64,000 bases of DNA, taken from IMG/VR virus record IMGVR_UViG_2541047857_000014; one strand, written 5' to 3'. The notes beneath the pieces were generated by a model, which was not told where the DNA came from, searched no databases, and saw only the letters and a list, made by a program, of their open reading frames with translations. A program made the position numbers and the translations under genes. This DNA comes from a virus. Its lineage: Duplodnaviria; Heunggongvirae; Uroviricota; Caudoviricetes. Below, piece by piece: positions 33,446 through 33,490 of the stretch (positions are counted from its first letter, which is position 1; every line of letters begins with the position of its first letter).

Positions 33446-33490
33446 ATGTAGGAATTTCGGACGCGGGTTCAACTCCCGCCAGCTCCACCA
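33446..33490 (+). other. tmRNA (ssrA) 3'-end fragment: att core repeat marking prophage end
   Basis: atgtaggaatttcggacgcgggttcaactcccgccagctccacca matches the 3' terminus of enterobacterial tmRNA as recalled, but the upstream ~320 nt are not tmRNA. Confidence 0.7.

Follow-up and report, generated by a model that had tools for sequence, protein, structure and literature searches.

What is the 3′ end of a tmRNA gene doing inside a stretch of phage DNA that holds no tmRNA gene? The gene concerned, ssrA, is the best-known hot spot for integrative elements. In the window (the whole 64,000-nt stretch of DNA that was analysed), a 45-mer on the + strand at 33446-33490, ATGTAGGAATTTCGGACGCGGGTTCAACTCCCGCCAGCTCCACCA, occurs a single time with up to 3 mismatches permitted; the chance expectation from shuffled sequences is 0. 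The first-pass annotation had identified these 45 nt with the 3′ terminus of enterobacterial ssrA, and the comparison bears this out, for they are identical at 45 of 45 positions to the annotated ssrA 3′ end of E. coli S88. It had also held that no tmRNA gene lies at the site. Indeed, ARAGORN found no tRNA or tmRNA gene in the whole window, and Rfam at its gathering threshold gave no tmRNA or tRNA match there. With the Rfam cut-off relaxed, 33420-33490 aligns to the tmRNA model, but only to its 3′ terminus (T arm, 3′ acceptor strand and CCA); the score is 34.1 bits, where gathering requires 47. The 5′ acceptor strand and the remainder of the tRNA-like domain are missing, and measured against what a functional tmRNA gene contains (a complete tRNA-like domain, pseudoknots and a tag reading frame) the sequence falls short. 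The element at 33446-33490 is thus a fragment of ssrA and not a gene. As argued below from sequence comparisons, we put at about 95% the probability that 33446-33491 is the attR core of a prophage that has a 186-type integrase, belongs with the P2-like phages SopEΦ, Fels-2 and Cartapus, and is integrated in the 3′ end of ssrA.

If the fragment is a displaced attachment core, an intact ssrA should lie at the other end of the prophage, and the first-pass annotation had placed it beyond the left edge of the window, near ogr. Taken as a query, the 6 kb around the site match E. coli S88, MS7163 and N53 at 100% identity. The window is collinear with S88 over 1-37110, with 0 indels and 12 mismatches, all within 7829-7894; it is likewise collinear with MS7163 over the 9,994 bases compared (1-9994), with 0 indels and the same 12 differences. 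This near-identity marks the source of the window as a very close relative of these strains, and annotation was transferred from S88, in which window position 1 corresponds to 2,798,891. The order in S88 is smpB, ssrA (2,797,922-2,798,284), a gene for a BRCT-domain protein, ogr and then the remaining P2-family gene set. Its ssrA (positions 4923-5285 of L001) is full-length, scoring 295.8 bits against the Rfam tmRNA model. The left flank of MS7163 is identical to that of S88, ssrA included, and in both strains 606 nt separate the end of the gene from window position 1 and 632 nt separate it from ogr, less than the limit of about 1 kb outside ogr that had been set beforehand. For the window's own chromosome we infer the attL copy from these two near-identical genomes, whose departures from the window are the 12 clustered mismatches and one artefactual block.

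The ssrA of S88 terminates in the same 46 nt as window 33446-33491; the direct repeat is exact over this length, the A at 33491 also being common to both copies. A repeat search over the whole interval returned exactly one long direct repeat, these 46 nt, with both copies on the + strand. The alignment of the two copies that had been suggested for defining attL and attR thus yields an exact repeat with a spacing of 34,096 bp, and the repeat brackets exactly the P2-like gene set. The non-functional, displaced core in the window would then be the attR of the P2-like prophage. The features of the locus are collected in the table.

Table. Features of the ssrA locus in and next to the window.
Feature	Position	Strand	Basis or remark
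Visible part of the P2-like prophage, ogr to P arm (Peduoviridae, SopEΦ/Fels-2/Cartapus-type)	1..33445		S88 annotation
Remainder of the P2-like prophage, ~606 nt (attL right arm and BRCT-domain cargo gene)	left of window		
ogr/Delta-like late activator, leftmost prophage gene in the window	27..245	-	S88 2798917-2799135
Putative Apl/Cox-like excisionase and switch protein	30083..30325	-	ORF; annotation of homologues
186-type CI repressor	30447..31079	+	Pfam Phage_CI_repr 1.7e-30, Phage_CI_C 7.2e-31
Tyrosine integrase, 339 aa, read towards the att site	31082..32101	+	Pfam Int_N 1.1e-28, Phage_integrase 6.4e-26
Cargo gene, 407 aa, GC 0.31, between int and att	32106..33329	+	ORF
Phage-derived P arm of attR	33330..33445	+	two tandem TGGCGGCA repeats
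att core, displaced copy (probable attR), 46 nt	33446..33491	+	last 45 nt of ssrA (T-arm, 3′ acceptor strand with CCA) plus one base
ssrA downstream tail and intrinsic terminator, now detached	33492..33647	+	stem-loop 33618-33641, then T run (terminator scan)
Second element (prophage 2) at ssrA	33648..64000		cargo genes and complete-looking prophage (S88 annotation)

The integrase gene lies downstream of the 186-type CI repressor gene and about 1.3 kb from the core. Its product is 90% identical (303/337) to the Int protein of SopEΦ, and integrases at least 90% identical to it are encoded by 28 phage records; among the matches listed, the nearest relative that is not an ssrA integrase is that of PSP3, at 59.6%. 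According to a review on the integrases of P2-like phages (PMC3448106), those of the 186 type tend towards tRNA genes as targets and use long cores by which the gene is restored; they have directly repeated arm sites of consensus tgccGCCActt. The reverse complement of this published consensus is TGGCGGCA, which occurs twice in tandem at 33333-33340 and 33344-33351, 95-113 nt to the left of the core. In the other phage arm, which adjoins attL, there are three TGGCGGCA/TGGCGACA repeats (L001 5334-5381). The motif is found 14 times in 43 kb, compared with 3.9 expected, and 5 of the 14 occurrences fall within about 115 nt of the two cores. Further, the P arm with both tandem repeats is conserved in SopEΦ, RE2010 and Cartapus. 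These repeats are putative 186-type arm sites at which Int would bind.

These findings also refine the picture of the left-hand flank. The first-pass annotation had taken the sequence upstream of the fragment as coding and AT-rich, which is true of the cargo gene (GC 0.31) but not of the adjacent 116 nt, the non-coding P arm. The distance from the core to the stop codon of that gene is these same 116 nt, not the 115 bp given earlier. Nor is the earlier name of the gene, RES, supported at the Pfam threshold: the match of its product to RES (E=0.19, 12.2 bits) lies below the Pfam cut-off of 23.2 bits.

All four forms of the attachment site (attL, attR, empty attB and attP) were found. In E. coli ZJ3920 and ATCC 11775, which lack the P2-like prophage, the match to the window starts exactly at 33446, under an intact ssrA, and runs rightwards. 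In a three-way alignment, the empty attB of ZJ3920 equals the left arm of attL joined to the right arm of attR, base for base, and the arrangement in ATCC 11775 is the same. The attP form comes from Cartapus, a free phage of the Peduoviridae, in which the order is Int, cargo gene, intergenic region, a BRCT/“exonuclease” gene and ogr. The left part of its attP is a homologue of the 116-nt left arm in the window, followed by an identical core; the right part reproduces the right arm of the S88 attL almost base for base, terminator included. The 46-nt core is present at 99% identity or more in 28 phage records, which include SopEΦ, RE2010, SEN8, Cartapus, ESSI-2, several Klebsiella phages and a Yersinia phage. 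In SopEΦ the core stands at the end of the record, and the RE2010 record marks it as a repeat_region. A count over 5,426 complete E. coli genomes gives 5,968 places for the 46-mer, about 540 above one per genome, and the particular junction studied here is common to 38 genomes (at least 80% of a 345-nt query that spans it). Together, the 46-nt repeat, the empty attB and the attP of a free phage uphold the earlier proposal that this is the displaced att core of a P2-like phage in the 3′ end of ssrA.

A history without site-specific recombination, in which the tmRNA gene was duplicated and a deletion then left a truncated pseudogene, would also account for the presence of the gene's 3′ 45 nt alone, next to the native tail and terminator. 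We consider the likelihood of such a history to be close to nil. The breakpoint and the attP core of a phage family known to integrate into ssrA agree to the base, and the upstream flank is a phage attP arm rather than rearranged chromosome. In addition, an integrase 90% identical to SopEΦ Int is encoded 1.3 kb away, and related strains carry precise empty sites.

The prophage reading entails the following series of events. The phage attP would bear a 46-nt copy of the ssrA 3′ end, and an older prophage of about 43 kb (prophage 2) would already have occupied ssrA when the P2-like phage targeted it. Site-specific recombination by a tyrosine recombinase between attP and the ssrA 3′ end would then yield two products. 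At attL, an intact ssrA would be regenerated from the chromosomal 5′ body, the core and the phage right arm with its terminator. At attR, the phage P arm with its arm-type Int sites would be joined through the core to the former tail and terminator of ssrA. The crossover itself would lie inside the core, with the T-loop TTCAACT or its surroundings as the expected region; as the core is identical in all copies, the alignment fits any point within it and any division of the window copy into phage-derived and chromosomal bases.

The terminators illustrate the exchange. An intrinsic terminator supplied by the phage, AAGGGGTTACGTAAAAGCGTAGCCCCTT, is located 8 nt past the end of the regenerated ssrA (L001 5294-5321, in S88), about 570-600 nt to the left of window position 1, and it is also present in the attP of Cartapus. 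This terminator replaces at attL the native one of ssrA, which stays with the displaced fragment (33618-33641). Between the phage terminator and ogr is the BRCT-domain cargo gene, whose product has a weak PADLOC match to PDC-S48 (1.8e-7).

The position of the fragment, downstream of int and the cargo gene on the same strand and followed by a terminator, invites the thought that it is a tRNA-like RNA element of the phage with a function of its own, such as a structure in the 3′ UTR of the int-cargo transcript, and that its likeness to ssrA has nothing to do with integration. The terminator scan found no terminator-like site between int/cargo and the fragment, and the free phage Cartapus has the same arrangement. 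Set against this, neither the 5′ acceptor strand nor the other parts of the tRNA-like domain are present, and a role in integration fully accounts for its presence, exact identity and position. We therefore hold a purely RNA-level role to be exceedingly improbable. A related idea supplements the attachment-site reading instead of replacing it. In both attR and attP the fragment shares its strand with the int-cargo operon and lies between the operon's downstream end and a terminator, and hence it could be transcribed. The displaced tmRNA 3′ fragment might then form a tRNA-like 3′ end of the int-cargo mRNA that affects stability or processing or interacts with SmpB. The one line of support for this is the geometry, and we regard the idea as highly unlikely.

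To the right of the core, the site turned out to be more complex than a prophage boundary alone. It does mark the right end of the P2-like prophage, as the first-pass annotation had it, but it is no simple junction with the chromosome, because prophage 2 lies on its right. The 46-mer is followed by the former tail of ssrA, which directly follows ssrA on its 3′ side in the empty-site strains and in the island-free strain A23 (where the naive order is ssrA, tail, ypjA) and is about 92-100% identical across E. coli. Homology to K-12 and A23 stops at about 33647. From there on, prophage 2, an element of some 43 kb with an HK97-type head and a Mu/e14-type baseplate, fills the rest of the window and extends about 12.6 kb beyond it, to its own integrase gene (S88 2,872,287-2,873,459) and a degenerate ssrA 3′ end plus a copy of the tail.

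That prophage 2 might not be at ssrA at all was considered and rejected, because a repeat search with the tail included revealed this degenerate distal copy. Searches beyond prophage 2 with an ssrA 25-mer (up to 3 mismatches) and a 12-mer (up to 1 mismatch) gave no third copy. In the tail-inclusive search, the tail and terminator recurred 43.1 kb to the right at 94% identity (L004 43474-43652; S88 ~2875473-2875651; window ~76.6 kb), beyond the prophage 2 integrase gene. This copy is preceded by GGACtCGGGTTCAACTCCCGCCAG, a 5-nt deletion and CCAATCATG, which is a degenerate ssrA 3′ end with 1 mismatch besides the deletion. Prophage 2 is thus flanked by an imperfect repeat of roughly 180 nt composed of the ssrA 3′ end and the tail. 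The ssrA remnant and tail beyond the prophage 2 integrase gene make the locus a tandem array: ssrA, the P2-like prophage, the 46-mer with the tail, prophage 2 with its cargo, the degenerate remnant with its tail, and glaH. The 46-mer is the internal junction of this two-element array. Strains with prophage 2 but without the P2-like prophage exist, and the distal remnant has decayed; from these two facts it would follow that prophage 2 was the earlier arrival and that the ssrA it regenerated then served the P2-like phage as target.

Could the fragment then be the ssrA-proximal att site of prophage 2 alone, with the P2-like prophage attached elsewhere? Prophage 2 is, after all, bounded by a repeat that includes the ssrA 3′ end and tail, and strains without the P2-like prophage have the same right-hand DNA directly after ssrA. 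We find this scarcely credible. What the perfect 46-nt repeat encloses is exactly the P2-like genome; to the left of its window copy stands an attP arm of P2-like type with arm sites, conserved in Cartapus, RE2010 and SopEΦ; and these three phages carry an identical core. The comparisons with P2-like attP sites thus point to a P2-like attR, to which a role in bounding prophage 2 is an addition and not an alternative.

Two regions of prophage 2 deserve mention in their own right. At its ssrA-proximal end, 34070-39164 is a cluster of nuclease-type cargo genes (DpnII/MboI-like, GIY-YIG, a DinI-like pseudogene and DUF262), in which the DpnII/MboI-like protein has a restriction-endonuclease domain (Pfam 9.5e-49). 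These may be defence genes. Outside the window, 15-nt tandem repeats resembling CAGATTTTGACGGGG (L004 33739-33813; S88 ~2865738-2865812) lie inside an HTH gene of the replication region and are iteron-like in appearance.

The gene content on the left of the core is that of a P2-family phage. The S88 annotation lists ogr, gpD, U, T, E, FII, FI, tail fibre, baseplate and lysis genes, followed by the P2-family capsid, terminase and portal genes, gpA, Dam, CII, an Apl/Cox-like gene, CI and Int. Accordingly, a P2-type structural module and a 186-type CI/Apl/CII switch are both present (from the RefSeq annotation of the S88 DNA and the Pfam CI domains). At the DNA level its regulatory end matches phages Cartapus and RE2010 with 94% identity. 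The product of the putative Apl/Cox-like gene is called a “Rha family transcriptional regulator” in S88, and the homologue at this position in Cartapus bears the name “Cox-like excisionase and repressor”. The annotations of S88 and N53 record a frameshift in the replication endonuclease gene gpA. It holds a perfect 26-nt tandem duplication (CAAGGGGACAGTTATTGCCACGAGTC twice, at 25324-25375), which is absent from Cartapus and to which the frameshift is due. Because gpA is frameshifted, the prophage is probably replication-defective. Despite this frameshift, int and both att cores are intact, and the sequence is consistent with Int and Apl still being able to excise the prophage.

The cargo gene next to the P arm occupies a slot that varies among strains. 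Its product matches no Pfam family at E<=0.01 and nothing in a PADLOC search; it is 39% identical to orfY of SopEΦ, which sits in the same slot, and a homologue in Cartapus is named RES. In BEN5202, the slot between int and att holds a gene of the GapS1 family. This variation suggests a cargo or defence hotspot adjoining attP. Elsewhere in the prophage, two low-GC inserts match models of anti-phage defence. One, at 12076-13776 between the baseplate V and tail-completion S genes, is AIPR/AbiU-like (PADLOC AbiU, 1.7e-24), and the other, at 22642-24051 adjoining the portal gene, matches PD-T7-1 (1.3e-196).

Two stretches of the window depart from S88 and bear on how its sequence is to be read. 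The block at 39474-41364 corresponds to the invertible tail-fibre/tfa segment of prophage 2, and in the window it is a per-base chimera of both orientations. All 1,891 positions are explained: 693 by the forward S88 sequence only, 660 by the inverted sequence only, 538 by both alike and 0 by neither, whereas shifted inversion centres explain only about 74%. The choice of orientation flips nearly base by base, and the ORFs that are broken in the window are intact in S88. No complete RefSeq E. coli genome carries the chimeric sequence. A simple inversion was rejected as the cause of the discrepancy at 39.5-41.4 kb, as it gives 63% identity, and allelic divergence was rejected in favour of the chimera. 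The block does not exist as real DNA; assembly or polishing made a consensus of the two orientations present in the culture. The mixture of orientations implies active inversion; the adjoining invertase gene (~39266-39388) is a pseudogene fragment.

The other stretch, 7829-7894, lies at the tail-fibre/tfa junction of the P2-like prophage, at the start of the tfa gene, and contains the 12 mismatches to S88 and MS7163. These reproduce exactly a 65-nt stretch of the tfaE gene of S88 prophage 2. No paralogue that could have been their source was found within the window; the donor sequence occurs only in the S88 version of the chimeric block. Either gene conversion between paralogues or mis-polishing by paralogous reads gave rise to the patch.

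How does this prophage compare with characterised systems? Its closest counterparts are SopEΦ, Fels-2 and RE2010 (Felsduovirus) and Cartapus (Elveevirus), with which it shares the gene order CI, Int, cargo, attP, (a BRCT/exonuclease-like gene) and ogr. The 46-nt cores of SopEΦ, RE2010 and Cartapus are identical to that in the window, and SopEΦ in particular combines an Int protein of 90% identity with a conserved P arm and its tandem arm sites. PMC3448106, citing Pelludat et al. 2003, gives ssrA as the integration site of SopEΦ and Fels-2, and on that account integration into ssrA by phages of this type has been described since 2003. The prophage differs from the SopEΦ group in its host, which is E. 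coli (S88 lineage) and not Salmonella, and in its frameshifted gpA, which makes this copy probably defective; its cargo gene, at 39% identity, is also well removed from SopEΦ orfY. With coliphage 186 it shares the 186-type tyrosine integrase, tgccGCCActt-type arm sites and a long core that restores the RNA gene after insertion (PMC3448106); the target of 186, however, is a tRNA-Ile gene, whereas here it is ssrA.

The cryptic prophage CP4-57 of E. coli K-12 uses the same target gene, and its far end carries a displaced remnant of the ssrA 3′ end, after which come the native tail, the terminator and ypjA. It is nonetheless a different element, and the K-12 remnant is shorter and degenerate. Prophage 2, with a long repeat that includes the tail, is closer to the situation of CP4-57 than the P2-like prophage is.

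The locus has the features by which Islander and TIGER recognise genomic islands: an intact tmRNA gene, a 3′ fragment of it on the same strand, a tyrosine integrase gene between the two and a precise empty site. The Islander approach is based on the regenerated tDNA and the displaced fragment as markers of island boundaries, and tandem arrays at tmRNA genes have already been catalogued with it (PMC4383910). The array described herein, two successive islands each with its own fragment and integrase, does not differ in kind from those.

The arrangement is thus a textbook case of well-documented biology that was already known, and current understanding is unchanged by it. What the finding offers is precision at this locus. 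With this site, the right end of the P2-like prophage is placed to the base. Further, the recognition of a two-element array at ssrA helps to annotate the window and to separate phage cargo from host genes.
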